64,000 nucleotides of DNA, from assembly GCF_964204645.1 (NCBI RefSeq), contig NC_134027.1:5240485-5304484 (forward strand). The letters are read 5' to 3'. The translations under genes were made by a program, and so were the position numbers. The notes beneath the pieces were generated by a model, which worked only from the letters and a program-made list of their open reading frames with translations, had not been told where the DNA came from and did not search any database. This DNA is from Tubulanus polymorphus (Eukaryota > Animalia > Nemertea). Shown one piece after another: positions 17,201-58,926 of the stretch (its first letter is position 1; each line of letters opens with the position of its first letter).

Positions 17201-20200
17201 AATTGCTCGTGTGTATTGTTCACCCTAAGGCTAATATGAACTGCGGAGACTTCGAGGAAGCCAGAAAACCCGAGATCAAAAGCTACGATCACTAACCCAA
17301 TATAACAACGGATAATCTCTCATCGATCAACAACCGCACAGCCTGTCACAACCAGTGAAATGTGTTTTCGCAAACGTGATAGTTATTGAAATTAAGTTGT
17401 CAGTAACTGTAGACTAAATTTCACTAGATCTCTCCATACGTTCGCTTGCTGGCTAATTCTATATGGTTTCTGACTCCTGACAGGATATTTTGCATCCGTT
17501 TTTTACCAGAAACGATGATGTCGGGTATTGAATAATCTATTCAGATTCCATATAACAGCCATTCACTTTATACACGCCTATCTCTGGTGAACATTGGATC
17601 AACTTAGGAAATCATTGAAGAGCGGCCTTATCCCATATAATCACTTTTATCAAATGTTACTCAAGGGATTGTTATTTCCATTAAGTCATATACAGCACTC
17701 AATGTCTCATCCCATTCCATATAAATCCATCAGCTACTATGGTCGAAATATATTCAATACTGCAGTATTACGTAGATGACCGATTGTAGTTCCTAAGGCG
17801 ATCATAATTCAGCCTTTTTCGGTCATTTCTATCTCTACTTCAGTTACGAGCCGCAGAAAATTTCAAGTTTCATATCAACAATCGATCGATTTTCATTTAA
17901 ATGAAAGGGTAATCTTATCTCCGCACTGCCGCAACAAACCGAATATGCCTTGGGTATCCGCAATCGCGTCGTTATATTTCTTGTTCAACGCCAAGTTTAA
18001 TTCAGTCTATACAATATTCAATAGCATCATGATGTAAGTCTGGTTCCTTGACTTTCAATCCGAAATAGCCCCCAAGGGAGCTTTGTCAGTTTAAATTGGC
18101 TGAATTATTCAAATCTTACTCCGAATGTTTGACCTCAGGCGGGTTTCAGATTTGCAGAACGTAATGAAATTCATCGCTTTTCACGACGAATCCAAGGTTT
18201 CTTACGTGGCAAACATGAAGTATCTAAACAGTACTTTCTGTGACAGATTTCTGTGATTAGTGACTGTACAATTTGAACTTACATTTCAAGCCCACTTCTG
18301 AATTTATCACAAGAGGTCACAGGTGCGTCATGTAAATTGCCGATGGCCACGTGTAATAAGATTCGCACTGAGCTGCTGCAATCGTGTTTGTAGCTCGGGT
18401 AAACATGACAATGATTCATGGTCATATTCACAGCCATGACGACAAATCATTTGATAGATTGCCCGTACCGGTTCCTGTAACGTCATTTAGTATCAATATA
18501 ACAGTCATCACCAGACTTGATGAAGCTATCAGCCATGTATGATCATATTCTTACGCGCAGTTTACTGGATTATAGATACTAGAAGCCCATTTTTCTACTT
18601 TAGGAGCAGCTGCGATCCACCATCAGAACCAGACTCTTGTTACTAACAATATTATATGATCAATTTGTCAGCTTGAATGTGTACTACAACGTTCCATCCG
18701 AAGATTTATCTACATCTTCCTTGGCTCGTCTCTAACACATTCTGAATTACTCGTTTCTGTATACGCATCATAAAGTATCTAAATTGATCGCTCTCTGGTT
18801 TCAATCAACAAGTCCACCAGTCAATAATACCCAACACTATCGATCATTTATCTATGAATTATCCATAATTCAGAATTGCGCTAATCGCGTTTTAGCGAAA
18901 TAAACATTCAATAAAAATCTATTGAAAGTTGGTTTTTTTAATGGTTTTTTTACGACTGGGCGGCGTGTCCGGTTTTGTAGAGTTCCGGGGTATTTCATTA
19001 GGGATAACCGTCTTGTCTTGCAGGTGAATGGCCCAGATGGTGTTTATTTAGAACCAGGATCTCAAAAACTGACAATCCAAGTAGAATGGTTGGATTCACA
19101 TCTTCTTCTTTACGACGGCTACCATCCGTTTGACGACATTAGTAGACTTCATAAACACCAGATGAGGTAACGTAACATAATGAACCAGGGGCGGATCCAG
19201 ACCGTATTAGCCGTATTGCCCAATACGGTCTAGAATTTTTAAGTGCCCTTCGAAATTTCACCGGCAATATTTTTGACGGCATTATTTCAGCAACCGCTAA
19301 TTCCGTGTCCGTAATCCGGGCATAATTATAAAATTAATCGGTTAGTATATACTGCTGCCGAGAAAGTGAGGAGAGATAATCATATTTGTAAAGCCTTAAA
19401 TCATGATAAATTAAAAAGGGCACTTTCCTTTTGCAAGGGGCACTCATGCTTTAGATGAGGGCACCTTGTCCTTCCTTGCCTTTTCAGGGAGGGCTAAAGG
19501 GGCACTCGTACTTTAGAAGAGGGCACTATACGCGGAAAATGTTGAAGAAAAGGGCACTTTTTTGCCTAATTTTTAAAATTTTAGGGGCACTTTTGGTTTG
19601 GAAGATGGCACACGACATAAGGATAAATGTGAAGACGAGGCAATTTTTGCCGATTGTTAACAATGAAGGGGCACTTAGCCGTATTCTGTATAATTGTTAA
19701 GGGGCACTTTTAAAGATTATAGGGGCACTAGGCGAAGTTGACGACAACCATTCTTTCATGGGTTCGCCAGCTTCATTTTTTATCCGCATGTGTTGAAATC
19801 TTGTCTCGAATTCGTTTATTCTGGATTGCTCTGCTAGCCTCTAGACGCCCTCTAAAAGCCTTTAAATGGTACCATATTTTCAAAATTTTCTGGGGGTGGG
19901 CCCCCAGACCCCCCTCTAAGGACTTTGCGCCTTCGGCGCTCGCATTGACCTGGATACTGGGTGTGCCCTTAGATCAGAAAGGTGCCCTTAAATTTCCTTC
20001 CAATACTGTCTACCCATCCCCCTGGATCCGCCCCTGTGAACATCATTTATGGTTGAACATCTCAGAATGAAAAATACTTATTGAGCCTTTTTTTATGAAT
20101 GAATTAAGTTTAGTTGAGCATAGTTAAGCATTCATTCAACAAATGCGATGATTTAAAATATTTTGACAGGGAAACATTCACTTTCTGAAGTGACGTACCA

Positions 20201-20357: not shown

Positions 20358-21466
20358 CAACGAACAAAAACAGATCACCGAGGCGAGAACTACCAACATC
20401 AGCGACAAGGAAACGAGACCACACCGCACATATAGCGAACAACTCAAATGATAGCAAGAACTAATTTTGGGAATATATCGAAATGCGAGTTGGTATTGTA
20501 TTAGCTTAAATGCTCAAGAAGGTTGAAAAGGGTAATTCGAGTAATCTTATTTTTTGCATCTATTGGGAAAGGGAAAAAGTCTGGTTCCTCAGAGATGATT
20601 TAATCATGCGGGGAGATGTTATTTCGGTTCCCGCCAGTGAGGAATTAAAAAAGCCCCTGCATGCTCCATGTGTTGAATAAAGCGTTAATTCAATTCATTC
20701 ATGTCAGAGTTTATGTTGTAGGGCCCTTCTTTGGCAGCAAAAATTAATTACGTACTGTCTTAAATGTTTTCATATAGGACCGTTATGTATGTGTTGATAG
20801 AAAATAATATTATATTTTAGAGTAATCACTCCTAGTGATAACGAAGGTAGGCGCACCTTAAAGTTATAACAACCTTTGTACGGGCGTGGATCGCTATCGA
20901 AAAGTCGTTCAAGTTTTATCTTAGTCTTTGTGAAAAGTGGATCCCTACGTGTACTTTCATTTCCCTAAATCAGATCAGTTTTCCCATTGCATTTAATATA
21001 TGATAACGTTTATCAAGGCATGTCTTCGATTCCTTGCGTCGGGAATTTTTCCAATAGACATATCATAATGTCTGATATATCACATGTTCGTCTAAGCTTT
21101 AGGAGACCAGTTCGTAAACCCTCATCGCATCGATATCGTTGTCGCTCAGTGATCTGTTTGGAGAAAGACAATTCAGTTTTTAGATCAATATATATCAAAT
21201 CTTTTTTATAATGATTAGCTTTTTAGTATTAATGTTAATTCGTGTTATTGAACCATTCTAGTGTCGTTTTACCTTGCAAAGGTACAAACACTATTTCTCT
21301 GCGTTCATGATTTACCGTTGTTTAATTAAAATACCGGCGAAGTATGCATGGATTAGATATCATATCGTTGTTTACACGTAGAATGAAATTGTAAAACTCA
21401 TCATTTTCTAAATTTCTTGGTGTATTGCAATCTGTCAACGTCCAGTTACGAATCTTGTGTAGTACA

Positions 21467-21543
21467 TCGGCATGGGATTCGAACCCGACTGCATCGCGAT
21501 GCTAGGTAGTCTTGCGATGGCTTCGGGTTCGAATACTCGCCGA
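21467..21543. repeat. Imperfect hairpin with opposed tRNA T-arm/B-box-like motifs; second copy at about 25635-25702
   Basis: ggcatgggattcgaacccga..catcgcga pairs with ttgcgatg..tcgggttcgaatactcgcc. Confidence 0.65.
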
Positions 21544-21953
21544 GGGAGGAAATAGATTGGTTGAACCAGATGATCTTAAAAATGGCAAAAGGCAGATAAT
21601 ACTGCCGCGAATATGTCATACTCAGGCTCCAACGAGCTGTGCATGAAGGTGATGCAATATTTTCAATCGACAAACAAATACACAATGTTAAACTACGTTT
21701 CGATTATTGTGATCTCTAAAAACACAGGCACTTTACTACAATTTAAGAAGCACATACATGTTGATATCTTGTAGAATGTTTTTATTAAGTCAATTTAATG
21801 CGATATTTTTATTTATATACATGTAATATAATTGTGTGTAATTTTATCTCGTTATTCAAACTTTTTAACTTAAAATAAATATAGCAATAAACATAGGCGT
21901 CATTTGTTTTATATCTTATCCATCGCATGAAAGACCTAAACAAGATTATAAGG

Positions 21954-24900
21954 TCAAGTTGTTTGAAGGTCACTGGACGCCACCGCGTCATTATTTTGGG
22001 CCTTTTGATCAGACGGTACTGGCGCATCAACCGTTTCTTTGTTGTTTGGGATTTTCCAACCGCCACAAGTCGTAATTATGATAGTTGACAAAAGACCCTG
22101 CAAATAAGGACATTCTCATAATTACCGATTCCAAATAAAAGATTGGCTATATTCAAATATAGAATCGATATGGAAACCAGATGGGTTTTATTACTTGTCC
22201 ATGAACTAGTATACCCAATATTGTCTTCACACGGACGACTAGATACCAACAGGTTTGAATCTTGTCGAGAAGATACAAATACTTACGAAACATATCAGAG
22301 ACAGTCCTACGATAGTGCATGACCAGGGGAAACCAATGGCATCAGTCATATAACCTCCTAGAAGTGGGCCAATTATATAACTGGAACAAGTAAAAACTGG
22401 TTTATGAACCACTTCTAGGTGTGTTTCATATATGTTGACGATTTTGAGTCACGTTTAGACTGAAATAGCTTTGATTCAAAAAGACATGTAGATTTATTGA
22501 TGATATTGTTACTGACAGTAATAATGGGACAGTCGTTTGATTTCGTAATTTTCATATATTCTTACCCAGCAGAGTCAGCGATAAGGAACAACGACGCTAT
22601 TAAACCGTTGAGATTTATATCATCGGCATATTTAAGTTTTTCCCTACAAATTGATATAGTATGTGTGAATTGATACGATACCAGTGTTTCAATGTTGAAA
22701 TGGAATATTTGTACGCACGTTGCATACGCCTTAATGATGCCAGGCACTGGAACTGTACCAAATATTAAACTAGCACCAACTAAAGAAAAACCTAATATAG
22801 GCAACCATATCTGATGTCTGAAATGTAGATAAACATAAGCATATTACATACTGATAACGTCCAACGAATTCCTATGAAAGAGGCCATCCATCGAGATTCG
22901 AATCACGATGAAGCTAAGAGGGGAATCCACAAACCCCGGTGTTATCCCGAACAGTGGTGTTTCACCGATTTGCATCGTTGATAATCCTGTCAGACACAAA
23001 CCAATTACCATAAACGGCTTTCCCAAATCCTAAAAATAGAAAATCATCAATATTCTTATATTCTAAAAACCACATCAATATGTATAAGATATGGTAATCC
23101 GTCTAATTACCTTTCTACGCTATGAAAAGAAAATGTATTTTCTGTAAATAGTTACTTACCACTTTATCTATAAGTAAACCAACAGGAATACTAACGATGA
23201 TGTATATTAAAATTGATACCAGGTAAATAAGTCCAATCATAGTTGGTGAAAGGTGATAGTACTGAAATATATTGAGATGGCATTATTCGAAATACCTTAG
23301 AACCAGAAGTTGTGGATCGAACTAATTACGACGATCAAAAAAAGGAATAAACGTGAAGAAAAATACATCCACCATGATTTGATTCGATGAGAATAACGCA
23401 TTATTACCCGCTTCAGGTACACAGCTACTGTTGGTTCTACAAATCCGAAAAATAGGCCGTGGGCCACGACCACCATCGTCGTAAGAACGACAGGACAACA
23501 CGTCATGAGTTTAAAAAATTCTAATGGTGGATATGGTGATTTTTTTACATCGGCTGAAAATTAGAGCAATTTAGTGATTACTCGGGTAAAATGAAAGATG
23601 CCGCAGTCGAAACTATCATCGAGTTCATGTTGCAGCTTAGAAAGTGATTTGACGGGAAATGAGCTATACTACCGAAACAAACACGATTAGATCGACGATC
23701 AACGTACACATAGATGGCATGACGATGAGAGATACTAGAAAAAACAGCATGCTGATGCTTCCCAGTACGAGAAACGGCAATTCAAATCCAGATACCTATA
23801 GAAATACACCAAAATGTATATCAATTGAATATTGTAAAAGTAGCGAAACACAATATTCCATTCGTTTTGAAACTGAACTTACATCATAGAGTGCTCCGGC
23901 TATGAGTGGTCCTAACATACTACCAAAACTAATAACCGTCTCAGTAATAGCCTGAAAACAATGTTCTTTTCTTCAACTTTTGAACTATAATTCAGAAGTG
24001 CTATCTGTGTAAACAGTAATGTGCTAAACTCTGATAATTGAAATAACTTTGTCATCAATACTGATTTTAAAAATGGCTTACGGGTTGAATGAAAAATTAT
24101 CTGATACCGTCGATATCTATTCATCATACGAAATAGAAATATGAGAGCATTATTTTTTTCATAAGTAAGGGACGATGTAAGGGACGATGTCAATAAGGGT
24201 ATCTATGTCAAATGAGTTGTTTTTAGAAGAATTCCATGTATTTTTAAGTCAATGTAACAATGGGCGTACGTGGTTTTTAACACAATATGGTGTAATATAT
24301 TATAATAGAAATAGTAAAAAAGGGAACTTACAACAACTGTGTTGATTTGTTCAGAAAATAACGTGACGATCACGGTCGCTCCAGTCGCAGTGGTTAAACC
24401 AACTCCCAGTGCCATAGTTATCCGTAGAACTATGCTCAATGATGTAAAGACTACATTGGACCGCGAATATATCACAAACCTTCAAAAAGAGAGGGGTTTG
24501 ACCTATCTTATACGTCCAGCATCAAAATTCGGGAGAGCATCCCCGATTCCACCCGCCCCTTGCATTTAAGGATGTAAAAATAAAAAAATAAAATCATATC
24601 ATATTCTCCATTGAAAAATACTCTGGTACATGCAAGCGGTTCTGATATCATACCCGAATGCTACAACGGATATAGAATTGATAAATGCTCCACCACAAAA
24701 CATCAACTTAACCCCTACACGAGTCATCTAAAACAGATTTTAAGAAAATATTCATGAATTATTTTACGATTTAAAAATATAAAACCTAACTATTATGCCT
24801 CAAAATACTCACATAAACGCCGGCAAAATAGGACGAAAATAGTTGTGAAATTGGAAATACGGCAATAATCCAGCCAATCGTACCATGCGATAAACCTCTC

Positions 24901-25268
24901 TTGATGGCCTGTGAAATTCAATATCGATATGATTAATTGAAGAATTCTCCGTAAATATGTTATCCACAAGTTCATTAAACGGCATTCGAAAATACCTCAT
25001 TCGGATAAAATGGCACCAGGGCAAAGAAGGACATCCATTCCAAAAGATTCATCGTATTCATTACTCCTAATAAAATGTACTTGTTTCTGGTGTTTATCTT
25101 ACTGCCCGTATTTCCATCTTTTTCTCCTGCTGTATTTTCTGTGGTGTTCTCTGAATTTTTGTCAACATCAAGATTTTCAATTTTACTTCCGTAATCTCGA
25201 TTCGTATCGGAATTATTAGCGTTAGTGACTAAAGGTAATGATTCTTTCCTGGGAATATCTGAAGTCAT
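21954..25268 (-). CDS. MFS-type transporter, SLC18B1-like (multi-exon)
   Basis: Spliced minus-strand exons read MTSDIPRKESLPL...MSFFALVPFYPNE | AIKRGLSHGTIGWIIAVFPISQLFSSYFAGVY | MTRVGVKLMFCGG... | ...LSIVLRITMALG... | AITETVISFGSMLGPLIAGALYD | VSGFELPFLVLG... and later exons with FVEPT and GPLLGGYMTDAIGFPWS. These are typical SLC18B1-family MFS motifs. Stop TGA at 21956-21954. Confidence 0.82.
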
Positions 25269-26800
25269 ATTATTCACACAAACTTTTATTCTGGAAATGC
25301 ACGTTAGACTGCGCTATATGCCATATGGGAGAATGCAAAGTTTACTATGAAATGACAGGTGCGCGGCAAAGATTATGGTATTCAGTCAGTGGTATCCACC
25401 TGTCGCAACGTAAAAGTTAATGCATAATTGTATGTAAAAACATGCGGTTTAGATAATGCTATAAATAGGGTGGACGGAAATCGTAAAGAATAATTGATAT
25501 ATATGTAACATGAATTAGTAATCGTATCGTTGTTTATACTTAGAGTGAAATTGTAAAACTCGTTTTTTCCTAATTTCCCTGGTGTATTTTAATCTGTCAA
25601 CGTCCAGTTTTGGTAAATCGGCATCCTCCCAGCTGGGATTCGAACCCGACTGCATCGCGACAAGGCAGTCTCGCGATGGCCATCGGGTTCGAATACTTGC
25701 CAATGGATATAGATTGGTAGACAGGCACTTCACAATTTAAGATGCACAAACGTGTTGATATCTTATAGAATGTTTTTATTAAATGAATTTAATGCGATAC
25801 TTTTACTTATATACATGTAATATAATTGTGTGTAATTTTATCCCGTTATACACTTAAAATAAATATAGCAATAAACAAAGGCTTCATTTGTTTTATATTT
25901 CATCCATCGATTGAAAGACCTAAACAAGATTAACGAAGTCACGTTTTTTGAAGGTCGCTGGACGCCACAACGTCATTATTTTGGACCTTTTGATCAGACG
26001 GTAACTGGCGCATCAACCGTTTCTTTTCTGTCCGGGATTTTCCAACTGCCAAAAGCCGTAATTATGATTGTCGACATAAGGCATAAGGACCAGTGATGTT
26101 ATCAAACCGTTGAGGTTTATATCATCAGGATATCTAAGTTTTTCCCTACAAATTAGAAAAATGATTGTGAATTAATTCGATACCGGAGCTTTCAATGTTG
26201 AAACGGAGTGTTTGTACGCACCTTGCATACGCCTTAATGATGCCAGGCACTGGAACTGTAAAATCAAACTAGCACCAGCTAGTGAAAAACCTTATATAGG
26301 CAACCATATCAAATGTCTGAAATGTAAATAATCATGAGTATGTTACATACTGATAACCCCCACGAATTCCTATGATAGAGATCATCCATTAAGATTCGAA
26401 TCACGATGAAGCTAAGAGGGGAATCCACAAACCCCGGTGTTATCCCGAACAGTGGTGTTTCACCGAGTTGCATCGTTGATAATCCTGTCAGACACAAACC
26501 AATTACCATAAACAGCTTTCCCAAATCCTAAACATAGAAAATCATCAATATTCTAATAGTCGAAAAACCCCATTAAGTTGTGTAAGATATGGTAATCCGT
26601 CTTATTACTTTTCTACGTACGTTGTGTAAAGAAAATGTATTTTCTGTAATTAGTTACTTACCACTTATCTATAAGAAAACCAACAGGAATACTAACGATG
26701 ATATATATTAAGATTGATACCAGGTAAATAAGACCATTCATAGTTGGTGAAAGGTGATAGTACTGAAATATATTGAGATGGCATTATTCGAAATACCTTA

Positions 26801-26872
26801 AGGCGGGCGTAGGTCGGACGACAGCTTGCGAGTCACTACGACTCGCAACGACCCACCGACCTACGCCCGGCT
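26801..26872. mobile_element. 72-bp MITE with TTA target-site duplication (PIF/Harbinger-type by TSD)
   Basis: TIRs aggcgggcgtaggtcgg / ccgacctacgcccggct (1 mismatch), with TTA on both sides. The paralogous site in the intact copy (about 23291-23305, aataccTTAgaacc) is empty. Confidence 0.9.
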
Positions 26873-27889
26873 TTAGAACCGGTTGTTAAGGATCGAAATA
26901 TCAAACAAGAAACGACCATCAGAAAAAGGGATCAATGCGAGGAAAAAAATACATCCACCATAATTTCATTCGATGAGAATAATTCAATAATCACCCGCTT
27001 CAGGTACACAGCTACTGTTGGTTCTGTAAATCCGAAAAATAGGCCGTGTGCCACGACCACCATCGTCGTAAGAACGACAGGACAACACGTCATGAGTTTA
27101 AAACATTCTAATGGTGGATATGGTGATTGTTTACATCGGCTGAAATGGTACTATCCGGGTAAAATAAAACATGCTGCAGTCGATGCTATATCGAGTTCAT
27201 GTTATGGCTTAGAACGTGATTTGACGGGAAATGAGCTATACTACCGAAACAAACACGATTAGATCAACGATCAACGTACACATAGATGGCATGACTTTGA
27301 GAGATACTATAAAAAACAGCATGCCAATGCTTCCCAGTACGAGAAACGGCAATTCAAATCCACATACCTAAAGAAATACACCAAAATGTATATTAGAAAA
27401 GTAGCGAAACACACACAATGTTCCATTCGCTTTGAAACTGAACTTGAGTGCTCCGGCTACGAGTGGTCCTAACATACTACCAAAACTATCAACCGCCTCA
27501 GTAACAGCCTGGAAAATAATCGTTTTGGATATACTGAATCGTTCATACGATACGAATAGATTTCTAAATTTCTATTTCTATCCGTTTTTCATTCTGCGAT
27601 ATGGCATACGTTAATGTTATTTTCTTCGATTGTATGACTGTAATGTAGAAGTGCTATATCTATGTGAACTGTAACTCTGATTACTGAGATAACTCCGTCA
27701 TCTAAACTACTTATGAAAAAGCTTCCCGATTGAATGATAATACAATATTCATCGAACGATATAGAAATATAAAGGCATCGTTTATTCATAAGTACGAGAC
27801 AATGTCAATAAGGATATCTATGTCAAATGAGCTGTTGTTAGAGAATTCCATTGATTTTTAAGCCAATGCAGCAATCGACGTACGTGGTT

Positions 27890-28318
27890 CTTATTATGAA
27901 ATGGCGCGATGAATTATAACAGAAATGATAAAAAGGCGCCCCCGCCAAAATGAACTTTCATTTTGGCGCCCCCACCAAAACGAACTTTCAACCACGTAAA
28001 AAAATTCTTTATATGCAAATTTATGCAAATTACACATAGGATCAACGCACCAAATTGAAAAATAATTTTTCTGTGGTTGAATGCTTGTTTTGGCGGGGGT
28101 GCCAAAACGTAAATAACCGCGCCAAAACGAAATAATCTTTGATTTGGTGCGTCAAAACGAACAGAGAAAATTGGACGTTTTTCGTTGTTTATGCGGGGGC
28201 GCCAAAACGGAATTTTCTTTGTTTTGGCGCGTTGTTTTTCGTTCTGGCGTTCTGGCGTTCTGGTGCCCTCATTTACATACCAGGAATTTTACGCTATGGC
28301 CCTTATCAGCCACCATAC
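27890..28318. mobile_element. Probable repeat or transposon fragment inserted in the pseudogene, with reiterated (GGC)GCCAAAA(CG) motifs in both orientations
   Basis: Absent from the intact gene copy. Motifs cgccaaaa/ccaaaacg and ttttggcg recur many times. Termini not resolved. Confidence 0.55.
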
Positions 28319-29141
28319 ATTCATCATATTCATTACTTCTAATAAAATGTACTTGTTTCTGTTGTTATCTTACTGCCCATATTTCCATCTTTTTCTCCTC
28401 CTGTATTTTCTGTGGTGTTCTCTGGATTTTTGTCAACAACAAGATTTTCATTTTTACCTCCGTAATCTCGATTTGTATCGGAATTATTGGATGGAGTCAA
28501 TGACTAAGGGTATCGATTCTTTCCCTGGAATATCTGAAGTCATATTTTTCGGATAAACTTTTATTTTAGAAATTCATCCACGTTAGACTGCGCTATATGG
28601 GAGAATGCAACGTTTACTATAATGAAATGACAGGTGCGCGCCAAAAGATTAGGCTATTCATTCGGTGGTCACTCGTTGCAACGTATTAACGTCCATGCAT
28701 AACTACTGTATGCAAAAATATGCGGAATAGACATTAATGCTATAAAGTTGGTGGACGGAAGAATAATTGATATGTAACACTGACGCATGGGGAACTCGTG
28801 TTTTGGTAATTGACAACCCCCAAGTATCAACGGGGTATTTATTAACGGGGAAATCAATACTTGTATAAAATCTGCAAAAAACCACGCGCTAATATCTCGT
28901 GTAAACGGTGAACAACTCGAAACAACGATTTTCCCCGAAACTGAATTGTAACCCATGCTTCATCAGTTATGGCACTCCCTCCTAAACAATGATCGCTTCC
29001 TTTTTGGCCAATGGGACGCATATTTGACGCATGCGGGCTTTGGCTAATTGACATATATATCAATAGCCGTCAATCGAAGCTTATCACAGTTCGCTAACTG
29101 AAATCTCGCGCATAAACTGATTTAGCTCTCGCAACATAATC

Positions 29142-31785
29142 ATGGATCAGAACGGATCTACAAACTGGAAGTGTAGCAATGGAGATCATCATCAGTACGA
29201 TGAGGATTGTCAGGCAGATGCCGTTATGATCAAACATACGTTTGAACCTGATGACGCCCTCATTTCCGTTGTCTCTAACTCATCAAGCAGATGTCATTCC
29301 ATGCCGCAGAAGACGACAAAAGAGCTGAAATTAATCCCGTTCAAACGTGCAGTAAGTATACGTAATTCACATGAGCTATAGCTAATAATAATGATGATAC
29401 CGAAATCACTATTCAAATATTCAAACTATATTTCATTTACAGGACACAGCATCGGAGTTTAATACGCAAATCGATACTATCTTTATATTCGATGAATGCT
29501 TTTTTGGTGCCCAGATCAAAACACAAAAAAGGGGATTTGAGTTTTTCCATACATTTGAAGCGGTTTCCAAAAATTCCGTAGCAGAAGGTCTCGATATAAA
29601 GTGAGTAAATCATTATAAGCAATAATCTTGACTATTAACATGAAATGATTAATTTAGTGCACTTCATATGGCCATAGATAACGACGTGGGTCAACTGATA
29701 AAGATAGCTTTCCCGAATTCCCTTAATTCGTCATTAATCGTGAATCAAAGAGATAATTTCGGATTTTATAGCCAGATAGAAAAGTAGTAACCCGTAACTG
29801 GGTTTTCTAATCGTCTTGTAAAACCCAGCTATACTATAAAGTCAGAAACACAGAACTCCGGTTAACATTGATCGAGAGCAATTGATCGAACACATCTACA
29901 AGTGCTTTTTTTACAGAGACGGCGACTATCTACTGATGATAAATGAGAAAAATGTTTGTGACATTGATAACAAAGGGGTCGTGGAAAAATTCAATCAGTT
30001 GCAGACGGATACAGACATTAAACTGGTAAGGTCAACAGCTTTATCGCAACAATATTATTTTCTATTTGTACTATTCATTATCGGTTTTAACCAAAAAAGG
30101 CAATATAATCCGTTAGTTCATCCGGTTTACTAGGTAGTACTTAAACTATATATTTCCGCTCGTGATGCGGGTGCACTAGAACATCTATCAAATTATCACT
30201 ACATTCAAGGACAATGAACGAACTTCGAGTGGCTTGAATATTGTGCAGTAACAACGTGCCACATATCATTTTGTTATGTACTGTTTTGTCCAGGTGACAT
30301 GGCAAGAATCGGAAGTTTCGCAACCACCTTTCACTACCATCAAGTTCCAATTGCATCGAAATTCGGGTACGACTTATTTTTGGTTTTCTATTAGATATGA
30401 AACTATGTAACTGGTAATGTGAATGTTTTCAATACAACATCCATCGGAAGGTCAATTAGTTTTGAATTATAGGCGTCATTTTGGTTTACTTTCTAGCTTA
30501 AGAGATAAATGGGGTTTACAATTTCATGAAATGTGGAAAGGCAGTTCAAGAATCATCCCTAAAACTGAAAAACCTGTTTGATACCATAAAATCATCCTGA
30601 TATTCACGATGACTTATTTTTTCATAATAGAGATAGGGGTCCTTTAATCGGATTTCGCGCAAAAAATTAATAGACATATTAATTTTTTTAGGTATTATAG
30701 CGCCCTGTGAAGATATAACAGTGAAACACGTTACGCAATTGCAATCTCAATCTGTACCCATTGTCAGCAAGATTTACCTGTCCAATACTACACATGAGAT
30801 GCGACAACAGACGCTATATATAGTACCACGTCGTGGGGCAGTGTATCGAGAGGAACGTAAAGCCGGTGACAAATCTTGTAAGCATATTGAATTATTATGA
30901 TCTATACTGGTTTTGTGCATGACTGAGAACGACGACTTTCCGACGTTTTACCTACAATTTAGTAGCGATATTTTGGAGCAAAGGAAATGTTGCAAACACG
31001 AGCTAACAGGGTCAATCCCTATTTTAGGATTAAAGAAAATACAATGGGCCATATCAATTAAATATAAACTTTCATCGAGCGTGTATTTACAATGTACTAC
31101 TCGTGCAAGCATTATTTCTTATCCATAAAACCAATTGTACCTGTATTATGATATTATGAACTATCAATATTTAATCATTATGTCTCGATTTTTAGTTGAA
31201 CTGTATCATACGGCAATCTATGCGATTGCAAAAAACAATTTCTCATTGATTGAGCGGCATCAGTTCTCAACGAGAAATCCAGACAGCGGCAAAGCACAAT
31301 TCCTTTGCTACCCAGACGATGGAAAGCCCAACTTAAGGTTTGCGGTACGTACAAAATCATGATCCACTTAAATTCTTGTAAAATTGTGCTAAAAACCAGG
31401 TATGAACCACAGCATTGAAAGATAATCATCAGCAATTGATACCGTTCGTTTATAGAAGAAAGGAAAAGATGATCCAACCACCTTCTTCGAAAAGAAAATG
31501 GACTCTGATGTAATAGGCGGAGAATTCTACTTGCGATGCGCTGAAGGTAAAAAACGGTGCATATGAAAAGAACGCCCGATTTTGATGGAACTCCGTGTAG
31601 ATTGTGATACTATTTTCCTGTTGTTGATTTCTATTTCACTCCTAGGTTCGGACGATGGCGAAATATTTGTAAGTGCCCACAATCCGGAAGACGTGCAATC
31701 ACTTTGCAATCTAAATGTTAAACGCAGCGAGGGTATTCTGATTTTCGAAATTTTGAAAATCACTAACGATGGTAACGCTCGTTGA
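29142..31785 (+). CDS. PDZ-domain plus putative IL-1-like beta-trefoil protein, 371 aa, 8 exons (29142-29351, 29443-29600, 29917-30025, 30294-30366, 30692-30877, 31196-31344, 31456-31546, 31646-31785)
   Basis: All seven introns are GT-AG and the phases chain (0,2,0,1,1,0,1) into one 1116-nt ORF with no internal stop. The PDZ signature VSKNSVAEGLDIKDGDYLLMINEKNV spans exons 2-3. The C-terminal ~170 aa has short beta-strand patterns resembling IL-1 (QFLCYPDDGKPNLRF; DPTTFFEK; IFVSA; ILIFEI). The gene structure is well supported; the IL-1 assignment is inference. Confidence 0.75.
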
Positions 31786-31828
31786 TCTGAGAAAATATCA
31801 TTATATTTATCAACATATTCATGTTGAT

Positions 31829-31912
31829 ATCATTATTACGATTATTATTATCATCATCATTACCATTATTATCACCATTGTTATTACAATTTTTGTTACC
31901 ATCATTATTATC
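31829..31912. repeat. Degenerate (ATT/ATC/ACC)n trinucleotide microsatellite just downstream of the PDZ gene stop codon
   Basis: atcattattacgattattatcatcatcattaccattattatcacc...; it explains the poly-Ile ORF 31769-32056. Confidence 0.85.
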
Positions 31913-34900
31913 ATGTTAGTATTGTATTTTTTCCATCATGTACGTACCCTGGGTACAGCTAACTTGGTTCAAAGAAAAACACACGATACGTTTTATTGTA
32001 CAAGATTCAATGAAAATAACGTATATAGTGAAAAAATGTTTTATCATATTACGTAAAGGTGTGATAAGTGTGTTTTCATGTGTCAACTGCCAAACAATTT
32101 TCAATAAAATTAAATTGTAATTGTTCATTTTGTATTTTGTATTGTTTATATGTCCATTTAAATGAATTCAAAGTTTATCCAGGAAATAAAAAAGCGGATA
32201 CAATTCTATACACTTGGTTTCTTTTTGTTTGGCAACTCGTTTCCAAGTAGAAAGTACCGAGCAAGTTCTATAGGATATGACGTCACACACCACGCTACTC
32301 GCGGAGATATGTCTCGCGGTCTACAAGAGAAATCCCACAGAATGGGCATAAAACTATTAGCCATTATATGAGTAACAAACGTTGCTAACAATGTGTACTC
32401 TTTTGCTATGAACTTTCTTCATCTTTTGGCTGATTTATTGTGGGATTTCTCTCGCATATTCATCCTACACGGATATTGTTCATCACCTCGATTTGTCTCA
32501 CGGTCGTTTCTCCATTTGTTGTAGCGTATTTAGTCGAAATAACTGAAACGTAACAATTCTAGATCTGCCTTTAATAAAATCATGTTTAAAATGTCACACG
32601 GGCAAAAAGTGCTGTAAACCAATTTCTATACTGAAATAAATATTTTTTATATGAATAAACCATCCATCAATAGATAACCTTACATTCGCGACTTTCCATT
32701 CTGAACATTCGCAATATCTGACGAAAGTGAAATACAAGTTACTGTTGTTAGTCGCTATAATTCTTGATTCTTAAAAGTAGAAAAAAAACTACTTTAGACT
32801 GAATATGTATGAATACATGTGTGTGTTATTTATAGGGGTGGTATATAGCAGTAAGGTATTCTGGTCCGCGGGATCGAGTTAGGTTGGTGTCGATTTAGAT
32901 CATTTCGATACGCCCCCATATTCAGTTGATTGCGAGCTGTTCCCTTTAGTAGCCGTAGGTCATCTTGTATATACTTACGTGTATTACGTTGTTGTATAGG
33001 CCAGACCAGCTGCCGCGGAGCATTTCGCGTTTCACTGAAGCCTTTGTCCGTTCCGTTTGGGTGTTGGCTCGGGAGTATTCTATGAGGTAGGCTCTGACAA
33101 ATTTCAACTAAATTTCTATTTTCACATTGAATAAATTTAACTATGTATACTTAGTAAAGTGTTAAATTTGAAACCGTCTTGCTAAGGTTAATGCTCTGTG
33201 AGTAAACTAGGGCCAAACTGTTGCAATGGAAAATTGCGTCGGAAATCTTTTGGCTGATAGATGTTTTCAGGTTCTATAGTTCTATATAAGTTCAGCAAAG
33301 TAAAAATCAACTTTATTTTGTTGATATCTCTCTGGTATCAAATAATTAATTGCTAATTATGTTATATAAAACGCCGCTTAGGGCGAGAAAGAAACGTTGG
33401 ATAGATCTTTTAGTAGTCAAATGATTACTCCAAGGGTATACATATAGATATATTGTTTCGAAAAAGTCAAAAGCTAAAAATATTTTGATCTCTTTTAATA
33501 GCGAATCTTATAATTTTCAATGCATACGTAAGCCAGTTATTTTAAACCAGCTAAGCAAATTCATGTTAAGCTTCTATCAGATATGAATTGATAAACATGG
33601 GGAGAGTTTCGTCTTCGTTTTGTAATTCGCGGAATCATAAGCCCTATAGCATTCTGAGCAGAAACCATAAAACGTTTTTACGTCAATCATTTCTGGTTCC
33701 TTTGTTGCGTCGTGTTCAATTTTGCATCCGACCTTGAAATGATAATTGTATTGCAATTGAATAGACTTGACCGTTTTTGGCATCATGACACATGTGGGTG
33801 TCATTCCGTGTTACGTATGTATATATTTATTAAGATATTGGTAGGCGAGTTGGTACTAGAAGGTATTTTGTTTAAGCCTAATGCCTAGAATCTTGTTTTC
33901 TAAACTATTTCTTGCTACAAACTTTAAGCATTCCACCATGTATTTCATTGCAAACAATTTTTATTTTACTGGAATATGAACATTCCGTAAGCTTTCTTAA
34001 CTTGTGAAAAATTGATATTGCTTTCTGTATCGTATTTGACGTAAACCACTTTTTAGCAGGTGAACCTGACCTTGGTGTAATGAAGACCTAATGTACGCGC
34101 ATCATTCATGTGAAGACCGACACCTTGTTTGTAGGTTGAAATTAAAGAATCTCGTAGAGAATCAACTCGTAAACGGGATGCATTTAATATGGTCTCATTT
34201 ATAGGAAGCTAAGCTATGCTTTCGTTTATACTGCACTATGTTATTCACATTTGGCTTGAGGTTACGCGTACTTTGTTATTCACTACGTAATGGTATGGAA
34301 TGGTATAAGTATTGATTAGGTATTGCAAGCGAGTTCAAAAGTGCATTGTCCAGTTCGCCCTGACAGTACTGTCGCCAAGGCGACATATTCCGCGATTACG
34401 TCATGAATCGATCGCCCGTTTACATTTATTATTAAAGATTTAGCTGTAATCGCGGTTTAGTCGTCTAAATTTTAAGCGCGTAACAGAAATATGCTGATAT
34501 TTTATCCCAAAGCCTAGAAGACATCATTTCACACGATAGTATTTATTCACTGCCTTCTGTGGAGAATAACCTTCGGTTACATTTCCAGCCCTTTTTGTTT
34601 CCACCCTTTCATTCGCCGCAAATTATTGTTCAAGATTCCAGGCTGCTTAATCAATATTTCACGATGCCCTTTGTTTGTGCGCGAAAGTTGCGTCGTTTTG
34701 GCGCAAGTGAAGCGCATAAATAATTTGCGTTATTGTTGTGAATAATTTATCAAGCGCATTTGATATATTTCTAAGATGTGTTCACGTATATATAACAACT
34801 ATTGTATTGCCTGTAATAGGGGAACAATTTTCACTCGGGAGTATGTTTGGAAATTGTTGCTTGATTGTGCGCGCCAGTAGGTTTCACGATGTCATTAACA

Positions 34901-36773: not shown

Positions 36774-39700
36774 ATGGCAGTGAGATGGAGCAGCGAAAAT
36801 GTAGTTGCAGAATACAAAGATTTGCAGGTAATTAAACGCATTTTACTGCAATAATTCTACATCTGGAAATGATTAAGTTTTATTTTGATAGTTAATAGAT
36901 ACTGATTCAATGATTAGTCATACTGTCACAGAGATCCCTTAAAAACATTTTATTTACCTCAATACAATATCAACTCAACTTTATTGTCATTGAACTTGAA
37001 TTAAATCTTTAAGTGTCACCCTATCAGTGAAACATTTAGTGCCAGGTACCGGTGGTGGGATTGATCTATCAACTATAGATATATATTAAACTTGTTTAAT
37101 TCTGACTGACAATTCATTTAGTTCCGAACGAAGCCGTAACCCTACTTTTATAGCAATAAGCAATGATCTCGGTTCATCTCGGTAAAATACGTCATCTCGG
37201 TAATAAGGATGACCGCTTTGAAATGATATAAAATGGAAATGCACCAGTGATAAAACATAATTCGTGATTCATAAAACATAAAACATAACCTCTAAGTTAT
37301 AATCTAATCCACAAATAATTAGTCTGAATACCAGTTGTTGTTACGGTTCCGTACAACGTCTGACGCTAAAGTATTATATAGAGGTTAACTCCTGTTAATT
37401 GCAATGCAACAACTGATTTTAGTGTCAAATCAAACCTTTGTACTAAAATAAATTAATTAGTTACCTTGTTGACTTTGAAAACGTGTTTTATAATAAAATT
37501 TTTGATGATTTAAATCGCGAATCGGAGAATTTATTGATTTGATTTGAATTGAATTGATTGCCACTATCGGGATTTCCAATACAGACTAAATTAATAAAAT
37601 GTGAAAATTCAATATGTCTCTCTAAAATTACTCTAAATGTTATTTTTTGTTGATAAAACACTTAAATTTTGGTCAATTTTAACCTTAAAATTTTGAAACA
37701 AGAATAACATCTGCATTGGTATCAATGTCAGTCCAAGTTAAGTTCGAATCCGTAATTTACACTCCCATCATGCACCACGAAAAGCCGCCATATTTGTTAT
37801 GGTGCCTCACTTCAACTAGTCAAAAGTTTTGAGCTACTACGATTGTCAAAAGCTACTTAGGATTACAAATTTATGCACAAACAATAGTTAACTTCCATCT
37901 GATTACAGAACAGTCAGTTTGAGGTAAGTTGATGGTGTTTTAATGGGTGAAATAGACGCTCAAAGCCTCATCCCTCAAAATGAGGGACGAAAATTAACCT
38001 TATATGAGCACTTTCGCCCTTGACGTTGTTTCAGGAACAACGGCTAGGTACTAGACTAATAAATAATATGTCCTACTTGATAATATACCCAACTTTACCA
38101 CAACCCTTAGCTAAAAGATGACTTAAACTGCTCTTGGCTTTTTTACAGGCCAATTGCATGGCAGTAGACTGTGTTGGCCACTATGGACTTCTTGGAGGGT
38201 AAGTTTTTGATGATGAGAATTCTGTATAATCCCACAGACCGACAGCAACACTTTGATTTGATTTGTCTCAGTTAACTATATCAAAACCTGCCTAAGCCTG
38301 ATGTCATTGACATTGGTGCCTCATTTGACATTTTTAGGAGAAGATTGTTGGCGTTGGTTGACCTTCACAAGCCATCCGATGCAGTCAAGAAATTTGCACG
38401 GAACAGCAAATGGGAGATCAGTGCTATGCGCTGGAATCCACATCAGTCGCATGGAAATCTTTTTGTAACCGCTGTATGTAATGAACATTATCAATGACGT
38501 TTTATGAATAGGGCTTTAGGTACCTAAGTAATATCCTGAATGTGTAAGTGGTTTTCTTTGATTTCTTGATTCCAGTCCAATCAAAGAGCAGATATATTTG
38601 CCTGGGCTGAAGGCCAGGCTGGTACAAAAGCTGGTTTAAAATCTCACACTAGAGTTATAAGGTTTGCATCATACTGCGATATATTGGCATTTATATTTGC
38701 CATAGGCCTGTATACCGGTATATGCTGTAATATATTATAGCATCTTTTATTTTTCAATTCTCCAGTGATTTGGATTGGTCACCGTTTGATCCAAATATTC
38801 TTGCCACATGTTCAATGGACACATTCACCTTTCTGTGGGATATCAGGTAACTATATCTTCGAAAACCATCCATCATGTGTGTATTTTGCCTGCATTGAAA
38901 ATGAATTGATGATTTCAATAAATTTATAGGGATGCTCGACGACCTCATGTATCATTACAAGCTGTAGGTACGTTTTAGAAATACGAAGTCTATAGACACC
39001 CAAACCTGTAGAGGCCATAATACAGTTTTCAGATAGGATATCAACCTATGTTGAGATATAATCTCTATTTTTCAGCTGGAGTCTCGCAGGTTAAATGGAA
39101 TAAAGTGAATACCAATCTGCTGGCTACAACACATGATGGTGACATCAGAATATGGGATCCTAGGGTATGTTAGCTCTTACACTTGTATAGTATACTTATT
39201 GTTGAACAAGTAAAACTTGTTGCGATTGAAAGTGTTTCATTGTTAAATTGTATATAATGTTTAGATGTCATACCAGCCTTTATTTATGGTGGTAAGTATT
39301 GATTAGAATTGGTGCTTCAAAGCGTTGCATGCTACAAAATTCAGATTTAGATGCACCATCCATTTCCGACCAAGCAGTTATCATCCTAGCAATGGGTCTA
39401 TAAAACTTGGAAGATTCATTTCATGATATGATTATCATAGATATACATCATAATGCGTTTTGAATGAATATTTTTTTTGGTGAAGGCTTTTGTGAAATAG
39501 AAAATGATTGATTGTAATTTATCAACATTGCTGAAAATAATCAGATTTTTGTATGATTTCTTAAACCTTAAATAAGTACTTTCAATCATTATTTTGTCAC
39601 TTCAAGGTCTGTTTGTAAATCTATGTTTTCCATTACATTTCCAGAAAGGTACTTCTCCAGTGCAATATATCGCAGCCCACTTGTCAAAAATACATGGCTT

Positions 39701-42700
39701 AGATTGGTCACCGGGGAATGAATTTACGTTAGCAACTTCTAGTCAAGATTGTACAGTCAAGGTGATTTTTATATTTTCTCTACTTGAGTCAAAGATTTCA
39801 CCCTTTAATTTGAATAGAATTTCATGTTTCTTAACATTTTACTATTGATAACACTGAATTATGTTATTTACTCCTAGTTTTGGGATGTTACAAGTCCTCG
39901 TAAGGCAACTAGTATGCTATCATCAAGCGCACCTGTATGGAGGGCTAGATTCACAGTATGTTCATTTGAAAGACTGCATTTCTGGAGATTCTGAATAAGA
40001 AGAATTTTAATCAGTCGAGTAATGTCAAACCGTTTATTCCAGCCATTCGGTCAGGGTATGGTGACTGTTGTCGTGCCACAACTTCGTCGCGGTGAAAACA
40101 GTTTACTGCTTTGGAACAAAAATGACCTACTTCAACCTGTTCATACATTTGTTGGCCATACAGACGTGGTTTTAGAATTCGAGTGGAGGAAACAAGTTGG
40201 AGGTGAGGCATTGAAAGTTCCTGGGTATATAATTTGCTTCATTTGATATACAATGTCATGTAACAAGCATTTCATGCTATTCATTTTGTATTCTAGTTGA
40301 TGGTGGTGATTATCAGCTTGTAACCTTCATGCTATTCATTTTGTATTCTAGTTGATGGTGGTGATTATCAGCTTGTAACGTGGTCGAAAGATCAAAGTCT
40401 ACGTATTTGGAGGATTGATCCACATCTGCAGAAAGTACGTTTGACATCACTTAATGATAGATTTGTGTTTCCCTATGTGAACGATTTTATACGACTCAAA
40501 CGGGTAATACTGGTATCTGTAATAACTCGCTTGAATTGTATTGCAGTTATGCGGTCCAGATTCAAACGATGAACTACTGTTGGATAATGTGGACGATATG
40601 GAAGAAATTGATGGAACAAACATTCAGTCAGTCATAGGAATAGCCGATGGCGAGAGATTGAGTCCAGATGATCTCAGTCCGTTACAATCAACTCCTCCAT
40701 CAAAACAGATTCCGTCGATGACTGAGCAAATTTCACCGCATCAACCAAAAACTTTACACCAAGAATTCTCCCTTGTTAACATAAACATTCCAAATGTCAC
40801 TGTTGATGAGGTTTGTAAAATATATCTGTTAAGAGAGCGTCCAAATTCGAGCAATACAAATATGGATCAAACATGTTTTCACATTACAGATGGATGCGTT
40901 TAAAAGGACATGTACTGTGTCAGTGGTTAGCAGTAAACATTTGGTGAAACTAATCATGTCGTTTCCCGTGACATATCCGAACAACGCTGCACCGACATTC
41001 CAGATTGCGCAGCCTACAACTATCGACCAAAATAATCAAACAAAACTGCTTAAGGTGCTTAAAGATACATCGCTTCAACACGTGAAGAGAAATCGATCGT
41101 GTTTGGAACCGTGTCTACGTCAGCTTGTCTCTTGTCTCGGGAATATTACGGTAGGTTTCTGGTTATATTTACATTCACAAATGATAAAACCTGATGGCAC
41201 CGATCGACTTCCAAGTTTTGTTTTTCACATATATGTCAGTTACCGAAAGAGTGCCAGTTTATCTTTTGAATTGTTTGAAGCAAAGAAACCTTCAGCTCAA
41301 CGGTATAAATTCTGTGAATCCAGCTTAATTTAAACACTGTTTTAGTCAATACTATAGCAGTTTCTTGATATGTACCAATTAGTGGGTTAAGAAGAGTTCC
41401 TCGGGACACATCTAAAGACCTTCCTATTCAGGCAGTACTGTTGTAAATACAATACCTGCGCTATATAAGTTAACATTTATAATTCATTTTCAAATCTGTC
41501 TTGTAGTTGGAAGAACGTGTAACGCCCGACTCGGATACACCGTATAACTTACAACAACCTGTTATTCAACAACCCACATTTCTACCTCTGTATTCTTACG
41601 GAAGTTTTCAAGATTCTTCAATTCCATTTCCTCGAACGTCTGGCGCTCGTTTTTGTGGGGCTGGTATGTTATCGTTTGCAGGCATTATCGATATCAAATA
41701 TAGATTTCGCTTTCATTTGAATCGTTCTTGCTTATCATTACTAGGTCATCTCGTAACGTTTACTAGAAGCTCTGATCTGAAGAAAAGTACAACAGAAATA
41801 ACACCTAAGTAAGCAGCGGTGTAATGAATATGTTTCTAAGTTCTAAATCACCGCATTCGTACTGGAATTTTTCAATTCATGGTGATTGGTATATTTCAGA
41901 TCATTGTCTGCTCTATCGGCTTACACACAAAGCCATTACAATGTGCGGACACCTCAACAGTCTCAACCATTCAATCTTATCTTCAATATGCCTCGCAGTC
42001 CTCCGAATAATGACGGCGTATCAATCAGTAATTTCTACAATTACAAAGGGGTAAGAGTTTATCAATATCTGATATTTTGAAGTGAACAACAATCGAGTTC
42101 CGAGATATTATTACGTTTGATGTAAATTCACCATTATTTTCAGAAACAAAGACTTCGTCCAAAAAAATCACTGAACAAGGAGTCGAGTGAACACAGTTCA
42201 CGTTCAAAGAAATCCTCTTCGTCTAAAATGTGTCGAGTGATGATTTACGACGCTAGTGTTTTATTGCCGATTCATAAATACCTAGCTGAAAATTATGTGT
42301 AAGATCGAATTCCACAACATCGAAAAAGTTGACTTGAAATTGAACCGTATTTCGCAGTTGCTATTTTTCTATTTCATCGCAGGCTGAATCCGAGTAACGT
42401 ACAAGAAACTTGTACTAAGAATGCCAGCGTAGCTGCATCTATTGGACGTAAGGACTTAGCTCAAATGTGGTCGTTGGCAGCTTTATCAGCTAGTCCAATG
42501 TTATCGTCAAGTCCCAATCCTGATGCAGGTCCGCCATGGGCTTATATGCCATTTGGAAGGAACCTTATCAAATCATGGTATGTAAATCAATCGTATAGTT
42601 AATGTAGCTATTTTATGATTGATGTCTTGATATCTGTTGATTATATATTCAAATAGGTTAGATCATTACAGTATAATGCATGATGTGCAGACATTAGCTA

Positions 42701-45700
42701 TGATCTGTTGTGTATTCGGAGCAAAGGACGGCAAACCGAAACAAATAAGCACTACTTCATCTCCTGATAGATCACAGTTTACGGACAGTGGAAGTGATTA
42801 TAGCACGGTGAGTCTTCGATCCGTTTCATTTTACACATAAAATGATAAGCTCAAATTGTCTACAATACGCAATCAAACCTGATGCTGAACTATTCCTAAT
42901 GTTTAATCTCGAGTCTGTTAATTACTGTATAACAATTCTCATAATGTGTGTGTGTCAGTCAGTCGCATCTGTTTGTGTTGTAGCATCATTCATCTAGTAG
43001 TAACATAGTCAAGGTGGGCGTAAAAAATACTTGCCGTGTTGCTTGTTGTTACTTCATTACGACTAAAACACCATTTTGTTTAGTTATTTGAATTGGTTTC
43101 AAGATCATTTCATCGATGACATTTCTATTTCCAGAAATTGGCGTCGATAACCTATAAACCAGAAAGTAGTTGAAAAATTACCCTCTTAATTAATGACATA
43201 ATTTGTGTTGACTACAATTTGAACGTTTTAATCAATTTTCAACTGTAAAACACACATTTTATCTGCTGCTTTGTGGTTTTAACAGGTTGGATTATTTATT
43301 TGTTTATAAATTGCTGTTGATATATCTTAGACTAACTGAAACTGATTCAATCAATTTGCAAGATATTGTGATGTTTGTTGTTCAGATCGTATCTGCTGAA
43401 GACGAGTTTGCCAGTTCTTTTTCGCACAGCTGGAGTTTTCGTAAGTCCTGTCACCGACAAGAGTGTCTCTCAAAATGATTGATTGCTGTGCTTAAATTCA
43501 GTGCTTCCAGTAATGCCTGCCCTGGAAGATACTCGACCAACCACCAATAACTAGAGAAAATTTAACCTTGAAAGCAAATTATCATCTATAATTGAAAATC
43601 ATTTTAACCGCAGAAGAAAGCAGAAATGAAAGTTGATGATATGGCTTTCAGTTTATCATTCCAATTTCAAACGATTTTAGCTTATTTTGTGGAAGTTGAA
43701 GCCATTATTCTTGCCTATAATTAAAAGTGATAGCAAAAAGTGGAGTCCAACGAGATCATTTTACTAGACACTACGTATATACAGATAAACCTGAATCATG
43801 ATCTATATATTATCCATACTTTCGATAAATTGCTGAAGATTGCTTTGCCATTATGAGTATACTACTGTCATAGAGTATTCTGTCAATTTGTCATAGAGCA
43901 TGGCATCATGTATTTTATCAGTTATACCGGGTATGTTGGCTGTGAGGTGTATGAAATATCACTGAAAACCCAACCATCATTGGAGCTCATACAGAATCCT
44001 TTGATATATTATTCAAAGATGAACGTCATAAACATTCCTCACTTGGCTCCATTACCAAGATCAATATGTGAACATTATCCTCTCTTCTTGATACCTTTAT
44101 GCATTTCTACAGAAACTGAAATTGAGTAAACAGTCCTATATTCCATGAGTAAGCGCTGCGTGTATTTATTTCAGGAAACATTGTCCTCCTCATAATTTTC
44201 ATCACCAGATTCATCATCCTTCTCTCCTTATTGTTTCCTCCCGTAGCCTGAAGAAGAAATACCAATACAGTTAAGCCCTGTCCTTGTCTCTCGAAGTTTA
44301 AGAAGACGGGGAAGTTTAATGCCCGTCATTGGCCCTATATTACCCACTCTTCGAGGTAAGATCACTACAAGTCCGTCCTGTATTAAGAAGTGGTTATTGT
44401 TTCATGGTTACCTCTTAGATTTATTGATAATTAAGTAACTTTAAACCCTTGAAATATGAAGAGTAAGGCATGTATAAACTTTTGTTTATGCTATTCTTTT
44501 AAATTTCATCAGGGTGAATTGTAATGACCACTTCTTCAGTAGCCTTGCTAAACTGAACGTGCTTCTTTGCTTTTTCTTTGCGCTTTCGCTGCAATGCTGC
44601 ATCCGTGCTTTGAAGCTAAGTTTATTGGTCATTTACTGAGAAAAATTTTGATTTAGTATCTTGCAAACTTCCCTCCGTATTTTATTTCATTAGATTGTCA
44701 TACTTGGGGTATTTACAAAATGTGGCTTCACTGATTACTTGGTTGGAGATGACTAGAGATTTAGTTAGTTCTTTTCACTCTTTGTTTCGTGGATGAGTGA
44801 GCAAGTTACAACTAATGCTACTTTCTTTTCAGAATAACCCTCACCCTTCAAAAATCACTAAGTTAGCAGCATAGTTTCAGTAAATACTAATGTTTAAATC
44901 TGTAATCTATCTAGAATGATTCACTGGATAAATCATACATAATCGTGTTATGAGATAATGTCTGCTTTGTTGATTTATCAAGGGTTTTTATCAGCTCATG
45001 CCCTGATACGTATTAAAACAACAAACACTCTATGTAATGTACATGTTAATGCTTGCGACATTCTCCTTAATTATTTATCATTTTACCTTTAACAGTATAG
45101 TCAATACCACACAATCCACCCTGGTGACACTGGACTACGAGAATTGTTACTGTGTAAGTGACCAACCCATTAGCAATATGCCAATACTGTATCTATGACC
45201 AACATTAGTTTATAACCTTTAACATCAAATTGGAGAAGAAAAGTTCAAAAATCTATATACATCTACTGGAATCTTTATCCCCGTTCTTTCTGGTGGTCAC
45301 AATGAAACACCCACCTTTTCTCAATGCACCATCAATGAATATCATGCACATCTTTTTCAAGTCGATACATTTTTGAACTTTTATCATACATATTGTACAT
45401 TTTGTAACATAGCATGCTCGGAGCATAGGAGGTTTAGCTCCTATAAACCTTTACTTACGGTGTGAAATTGTGTTCTGTAAAACCTACAGTTGCCATAATG
45501 TATCCAGTAAATCTAGTACGTCAGTGATGAGGGATGTTTCAATTATTATGCATGCACTGGTTTATGGTTACCATTTTGTAAATACCCAGTAGCGCACAAT
45601 GGCTGCATATGGGGGTAAGAATCAGTAATAAGTGAACAATCCCTGTGAATTATGAATTATAAACGTACTACCTGGTACTTAGATATGTCATTTTCTTTTT

Positions 45701-54681: not shown

Positions 54682-58926
<4,245 letters not shown>

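Follow-up and report, generated by a model that had tools for sequence, protein, structure and literature searches.

A transcribed eight-exon gene in the ribbon worm Tubulanus polymorphus likely encodes a divergent PDZ-bearing member of the IL-1anc family

The window analysed in the present study is the whole stretch of 64,000 nucleotides (nt) of contig NC_134027.1 from the palaeonemertean ribbon worm Tubulanus polymorphus. It contains a transcribed, spliced eight-exon gene whose product, a protein of 371 amino acids (aa), is likely a very divergent member of the IL-1anc family, as suggested by the fold indicated by the ESM Atlas, the order of the domains and the exon layout. This family has been described by Fontenla-Iglesias et al. 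(Nat Ecol Evol 2026, PMC13736523; preprint PMC12338702). Its members are defined there as proteins of less than 500 aa without a signal peptide, made up of a PDZ domain at the N terminus and an IL-1 trefoil at the C terminus, and are known from cnidarians, molluscs, brachiopods, crustaceans and deuterostomes (PMC13736523). Membership is rated this highly because a leaderless combination of PDZ and trefoil with such an exon layout fits no other family known to us. The whole reading favoured here, a divergent IL-1anc cytokine whose leaderless precursor acts as an immune signal, is probable, with distinctly less assurance than the membership itself.

The eight exons occupy positions 29142-31785 of the + strand and are separated by GT-AG introns of 91-325 nt with phases 0,2,0,1,1,0,1. 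They join into a single open frame of 371 aa, as the sequence-only reading of this DNA had proposed, and the C-terminal sequence quoted in that reading lies within it. The exon joints were sought in contigs of several sequencing runs, among them X2 (study P1) and X5 (study P2). The features of the gene are as follows.

29142-29351, + strand: exon 1, aa 1-70, acidic and polar N-terminal region; intron 1 of phase 0; joint 29351/29443 in X2 and X5, contigs from 29180 only
29443-29600, + strand: exon 2, aa 71-123, first part of the PDZ-like domain; intron 2 of phase 2; X2 and X5 joints, Pfam and PDB matches
29917-30025, + strand: exon 3, aa 123-159, second part of the PDZ-like domain; intron 3 of phase 0; X2 and X5 joints, Pfam and PDB matches
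30294-30366, + strand: exon 4, aa 160-184, end of the PDZ and linker; intron 4 of phase 1; X2 and X5 joints
30692-30877, + strand: exon 5, aa 184-246, linker with Asp191 (putative candidate cleavage site) and start of the predicted beta-trefoil; intron 5 of phase 1; joints, Atlas model
31196-31344 (149 nt), + strand: exon 6, aa 246-295, central part of the predicted trefoil; intron 6 of phase 0 directly after KPNLRFA
31456-31546, + strand: exon 7, aa 296-326, with the DPTTFF motif, and with FYLRC where the [F/L]ES strand of the family likely lies, placed by eye against rows of Table S2 of PMC13736523; intron 7 of phase 1
31646-31785, + strand: coding part of exon 8, aa 326-371 and stop, last strands of the predicted trefoil; joints, Atlas model
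31786-32138, + strand: 3' untranslated region (UTR); transcript contigs reach 32138, AATAAA at 32103

The open frame is kept in 48 of the 4608 combinations of GT and AG sites lying at most 12 nt from the exon boundaries, so the frame alone is no proof of the gene model, and it is the transcript contigs that decide. All seven joints are present in spliced contigs of X2, and all seven again in X5, in each case at GT..AG borders. The runs bear no RNA label on record; the spliced contigs are themselves the evidence of transcription. A processed copy as the source of the joints was considered and rejected, since the two long unbroken contigs of run X1 cross the introns and contain no joint. The spliced contigs start at 29180 and 29183, leaving the ATG and any upstream exon outside their coverage; the genomic DNA has an in-frame stop eight codons upstream of the ATG and, at 29124-29125, an AG that is a possible acceptor of an upstream exon. 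Runs X3 and X4, which share the sample label of X2, contain joints neither for this gene nor for a neighbouring WD40 gene and are thus uninformative on tissue specificity, and X6 has no contig for the gene. Two allele differences were seen: one at 29255, which is silent (Asp38), and one at 30781 in unspliced contigs of X3 and X4, which would replace Ser214 by Pro close to where the predicted trefoil begins. Dispersed short repeats, to which numerous contigs match, lie inside intron 5 (31005-31039), just past the 3' end of the gene (32418-32479) and at 27900-28260 and 37160-38060, and the 3' UTR contains an ATT/ATC low-complexity run at about 31835-31910.

The translation is identical to RefSeq XP_074645683.1, 'uncharacterized protein LOC141901970' of T. 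polymorphus, the single protein recovered when exon 5 served as the query. The gene is thus already annotated in RefSeq, though unnamed, and its description as hidden holds only for the track of open reading frames (ORFs) from which the sequence-only reading was made. The 90% identity cluster of XP_074645683.1 has one member, and a tblastn search of the window revealed no second copy or paralog.

The N-terminal half begins with 78 polar and acidic residues, and no basic cluster resembling a nuclear localisation signal precedes the PDZ. No hydrophobic leader was found: within the first 40 residues no 11-mer exceeds a Kyte-Doolittle value of 0.2, in agreement with the earlier claim that a signal peptide is lacking. 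A PDZ domain is predicted at about aa 80-165, where it had also been placed before. The matches behind this prediction are weak, namely Pfam PDZ_6 over aa 109-140 (E 0.0026; 17.9 bits against a cut-off of 27) and nine PDB sequence matches, eight of which are PDZ domains over aa 101-165 (E 0.25-1.2). Pfam scans of the eight exons individually gave nothing meaningful.

The C-terminal domain (about aa 200-370) is probably a beta-trefoil, judging by the ESM Atlas model, which has a predicted template modelling score (pTM) of 0.58 and a predicted local distance difference test (pLDDT) of 0.61. Residues 200-371 of this model align to clusters of beta-trefoil type with template modelling (TM) scores of 0.61-0.71 over 131-148 residues. 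In the search by features, the best match with a Pfam family is an IL-18/PF00340 cluster, ranked fourth of 30 with a score of 0.87 and 142 of 256 features, the most among the rows shown. Both Atlas searches are one source of evidence, and the sole usable one for the trefoil fold. The subtype of the trefoil is not settled by structure, and the choice of IL-1 over other trefoils, which we infer from the whole of the protein and gene, is likely correct.

The exon layout provides a further link. According to the reviewer response of PMC13736523, the PDZ of ambulacrarian IL-1anc genes is encoded by exons 2-3 and their trefoil by exons 5-8; the text of the paper describes the trefoil as spread over three to five exons. 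The same layout is found in the ribbon-worm gene, with exons 2-3 encoding aa 71-159 (PDZ) and exons 5-8 encoding aa 184-371 (trefoil). DPTTFF in exon 7 resembles, by eye, the D-x-R-F-F that precedes the LES strand of the molluscan members in Table S2 (PMC13736523). IL-1beta genes end in introns of phases 1,1,0 (PMC4880838). Introns 4-6 of the ribbon-worm gene show this run, with the difference that a further phase-1 intron (intron 7) follows. In human IL1B the phase-0 intron follows the KPTLQL strand; its counterpart here, paired with it in the sequence-only reading too, is KPNLRFA, which is followed by intron 6.

As to function, an extracellular role as an immune signal is likely, given IL-1anc membership, by analogy with other members. 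By the same analogy, with IL-1 of sea urchin, lamprey and mammals, the protein would be a cytoplasmic precursor, which the N-terminal and PDZ half may keep or position. It would be released outside the secretory pathway upon cell damage or pyroptosis. The linker might be cut at Asp191, the sole aspartate between the PDZ and the trefoil, which would free a trefoil fragment of 180 aa and 20.5 kDa (computed). The trefoil could then act on an Ig-TIR receptor and lead to inflammatory signalling of NF-kappaB type.

Several observations weigh against this favoured reading, some of them touching the immune role and others the assignment to IL-1. With regard to the role, the DNA offers nothing in favour of inducibility: a kappaB consensus pattern gave 51 matches against 55.9 expected, with one site with a single mismatch at 28789, and the 353-nt 3' UTR has one ATTTA against 2.7 expected, so that neither kappaB-like sites nor AU-rich elements rise above chance. 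These counts, together with the missing [F/L]ES motif, suit an IL-1anc member that is not a released pro-inflammatory signal, being instead an intracellular PDZ scaffold or a constitutive, tissue-bound or antagonist-type ligand. The spliced transcript, found in two independent studies for which no challenge is recorded, points the same way. Several IL-1anc members are likewise uninduced (SpurIL-1.3 and 1.4 in adults), only SpurIL-1.3 was cut by caspases among the sea urchin and lamprey proteins tested, and ligand-receptor binding has been shown for no member (PMC13736523). The same source speaks against such a role in that lamprey, sea urchin and sea anemone members are inducible by flagellin, Vibrio or cGAMP, and in that the inducible SpurIL-1.2 shows basal expression as well. 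An intracellular or non-inflammatory role is rather unlikely, though the most probable of the alternatives.

With regard to the assignment to IL-1, sequence searches gave no support. A full phmmer search of 1.84 billion representatives at E 0.001 matched the 371-aa protein only to itself, and so did word-index searches with 862 and 423 candidates at E 1 and 10. The published mollusc and brachiopod IL-1anc members are RefSeq proteins, yet they were not matched in these library searches; BLAST- and HMMER-type searches are reported to fail to detect invertebrate IL-1 across phyla (PMC13736523). In aa 201-368 no Pfam family was found at E 10, IL1, FGF, Fascin and Ricin_B included, and no IL-1 chain of the PDB reached E 10 in the sequence search. 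The motif-by-motif match to human IL-1beta that the sequence-only reading had drawn by eye is thus without statistical support. Because the searches returned only the protein itself, AlphaFold was run without an alignment, and its models of the whole protein and of aa 201-368, both with a pLDDT of 30, are unusable. Foldseek found no match at E 0.001 for either of them; for the full-length model pro-IL-18 (8urv), at TM 0.11, and an unrelated protein share the best E-value, 0.077, a faint hint at best.

Neither is the characteristic motif of the family preserved. [F/L]ES occurs nowhere in the protein; FYLRC at aa 319 is its likely counterpart, with LRC replacing the motif. The authors of PMC13736523 call [F/L]ES, located in strand 9, 'often conserved', and among 24 rows of their Table S2 compared by eye it is present in all nine from molluscs and brachiopods. 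Cnidarian and crustacean members in this table deviate too (FRS, FQS, LRN and IKH, by eye), so the motif is not required for IL-1anc. The neighbourhood does not help either: IL-1R, GCC2, ESD, EIF2A and TRAF3 are encoded by none of the ORFs scanned in the window, which were 336 of the 581 stop-to-stop ORFs of at least 42 aa, picked by a composition filter, and 27 chosen ORFs, a set in which small exons can be missed. In PMC13736523, linkage of IL-1anc to one or another of these five genes is reported from cnidarians and ambulacrarians only, and microsynteny often does not extend beyond clades.

A trefoil of another lineage, such as a leaderless FGF-like, fascin-like or ricin-B/lectin-like domain joined to a PDZ independently of IL-1anc, would account for the lack of a sequence link to any IL-1 or IL-1anc in the library, Pfam and PDB. 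All ten rows of the Atlas structure search are bacterial; six are clusters of ricin-B domains, the nearest structures, and none is IL-1. The feature scores of clitocypin, ricin, fascin and FGF-like clusters (0.86) are nearly level with that of IL-18, which itself lies below the bar of 0.9 and is a lead only. In FGF genes, too, a phase-1 and then a phase-0 intron interrupt the trefoil at similar positions, and the phases alone thus do not separate IL-1 from FGF. The central trefoil exon, at 149 nt, is closer to that of IL-1 (about 131 nt) than to that of FGF (104 nt), and no animal family that pairs a PDZ with FGF or ricin is known to us. Such an origin is further disfavoured by the absence of Pfam matches to FGF, fascin or ricin, families usually caught by profile, and by the lack of a clear internal three-fold repeat of the kind seen in lectin-type trefoils (4% of shuffles reach the best of the three pairs). 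The distribution of PDZ and trefoil over exons 2-3 and 5-8, as reported for IL-1anc (PMC13736523), also argues against it. An independent origin seems improbable, and membership in IL-1anc remains the preferred assignment. Of the view that the gene encodes a divergent, ancestral-type IL-1 ligand, the leaderless PDZ-trefoil architecture and the link to IL-1anc are supported, mainly by Atlas fold, domain order and exon layout; a confident trefoil model with IL-1 as best match was not obtained, the AlphaFold models being of too low confidence, the nearest Atlas structures being of ricin-B type and IL-18 being the best named match by features only.

It is still less probable, and should be regarded as speculative, that the protein is no ordinary IL-1anc orthologue but represents a PDZ-trefoil branch of its own, deeply diverged and devoid of the FES strand motif, with a trefoil nearer to IL-18 than to IL-1beta, and is the first nemertean gene of the IL-1 superfamily; if this is true, an IL-18-type branch predates the split of protostomes and deuterostomes. 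That the C-terminal domain is no beta-trefoil and resembles IL-1 by chance is very improbable, as the AlphaFold run that gave no fold is uninformative for a single sequence and the Atlas searches, from a model of moderate confidence, indicate the trefoil clan across the whole 170-aa stretch.

The remaining part of the window encodes proteins with MATH, WD40/RWD/zinc-ribbon, TPT, DUF4200 and Rad52 domains, as found among the scanned ORFs. Directly upstream of the gene lies a tandem duplication of about 3.5-4 kb (21347-25503 and 25509-28776), composed of six blocks with 70-89% identity; its minus-strand ORFs are, by eye, presumably two copies of an MFS-like membrane transporter gene, and its single exons have no significant Pfam match. 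Downstream, a gene with WD40, RWD and zinc-ribbon domains at about 38400-48900 (+ strand), which we take to be WDR59-like by domain order, has five spliced joints at 38473-39264 in X2. It is followed by a nucleotide-sugar transporter of the TPT family (51326-51928, +), presumably SLC35C1-like, a DUF4200 gene (55400-58600, - strand), assumed to be CFAP100-like, and RAD52 (60638-61800, +; E 2.1e-14). A MATH-domain gene is located about 20 kb upstream (8205-9464, +, with a further exon near 18904-19167; Pfam MATH_2, E 1.7e-8). Cnidarian IL-1anc genes are flanked by TRAF3 (PMC13736523). The MATH gene does not look like a TRAF, which makes this identity unlikely: the MATH domain stands close to the beginning of a 420-aa open frame, and neither a RING nor a TRAF zinc finger was found. 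The MATH, WD40/RWD, TPT, DUF4200 and Rad52 neighbours are not named in the text and supplements of PMC13736523 as available.

The novelty claimed in the sequence-only reading was overstated. The IL-1anc family, its PDZ, its leaderless state and the pairing proposed for it with Ig-TIR receptors of invertebrates have been published (PMC13736523, PMC12338702), and RefSeq contains the gene. The main conclusion already published, that IL-1-like ligands occur across invertebrates, is unchanged. Novelty lies in the phylum, in the lost FES motif and in a divergence that is extreme; the family itself is known. No nemertean appears in the genome list, main text and seven supplementary files of PMC13736523 or in the preprint text PMC12338702, and a literature search, with subscription journals largely outside its coverage, found no paper on nemertean IL-1. 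Nemertea being outside the surveyed genomes, the gene probably adds a missing phylum to the known distribution of ancestral IL-1 genes. The presence of the full eight-exon, PDZ-bearing layout in a palaeonemertean supports this layout as ancestral for lophotrochozoans. Besides, a candidate function can be named for an 'uncharacterized' RefSeq protein without sequence relatives, and IL-1anc members devoid of the FES motif would escape the published motif-guided screen.

In comparison with known systems, the ribbon-worm protein most resembles IL-1anc, being leaderless and shorter than 500 aa and having a variable N-terminus, a predicted PDZ, a linker and a predicted C-terminal trefoil. The nearest animals sampled for this family are a brachiopod (Lingula) and bivalves, whereas the present gene comes from the phylum Nemertea. 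An earlier PDZ-bearing example is nIL-1F of lumpfish, which combines a PDZ with an IL-1 family domain (Eggestol et al. 2020, PMC7144542). It is similar in this arrangement and in length (352 aa against 371 aa) but has seven coding exons instead of eight and is recognised by the IL-1 family profile, unlike the ribbon-worm protein. Classical vertebrate IL-1 carries the signature FES-PG-WF (PMC12108812), which is absent from the ribbon-worm protein, as is the Pfam IL1 match. Vertebrate IL-1beta and IL-18 (PF00340) differ in having no PDZ and show no significant sequence similarity to it; they share with it the leaderless precursor, the C-terminal trefoil, predicted here, and the phase run 1,1,0, and IL-18 is its best named feature match in the Atlas.
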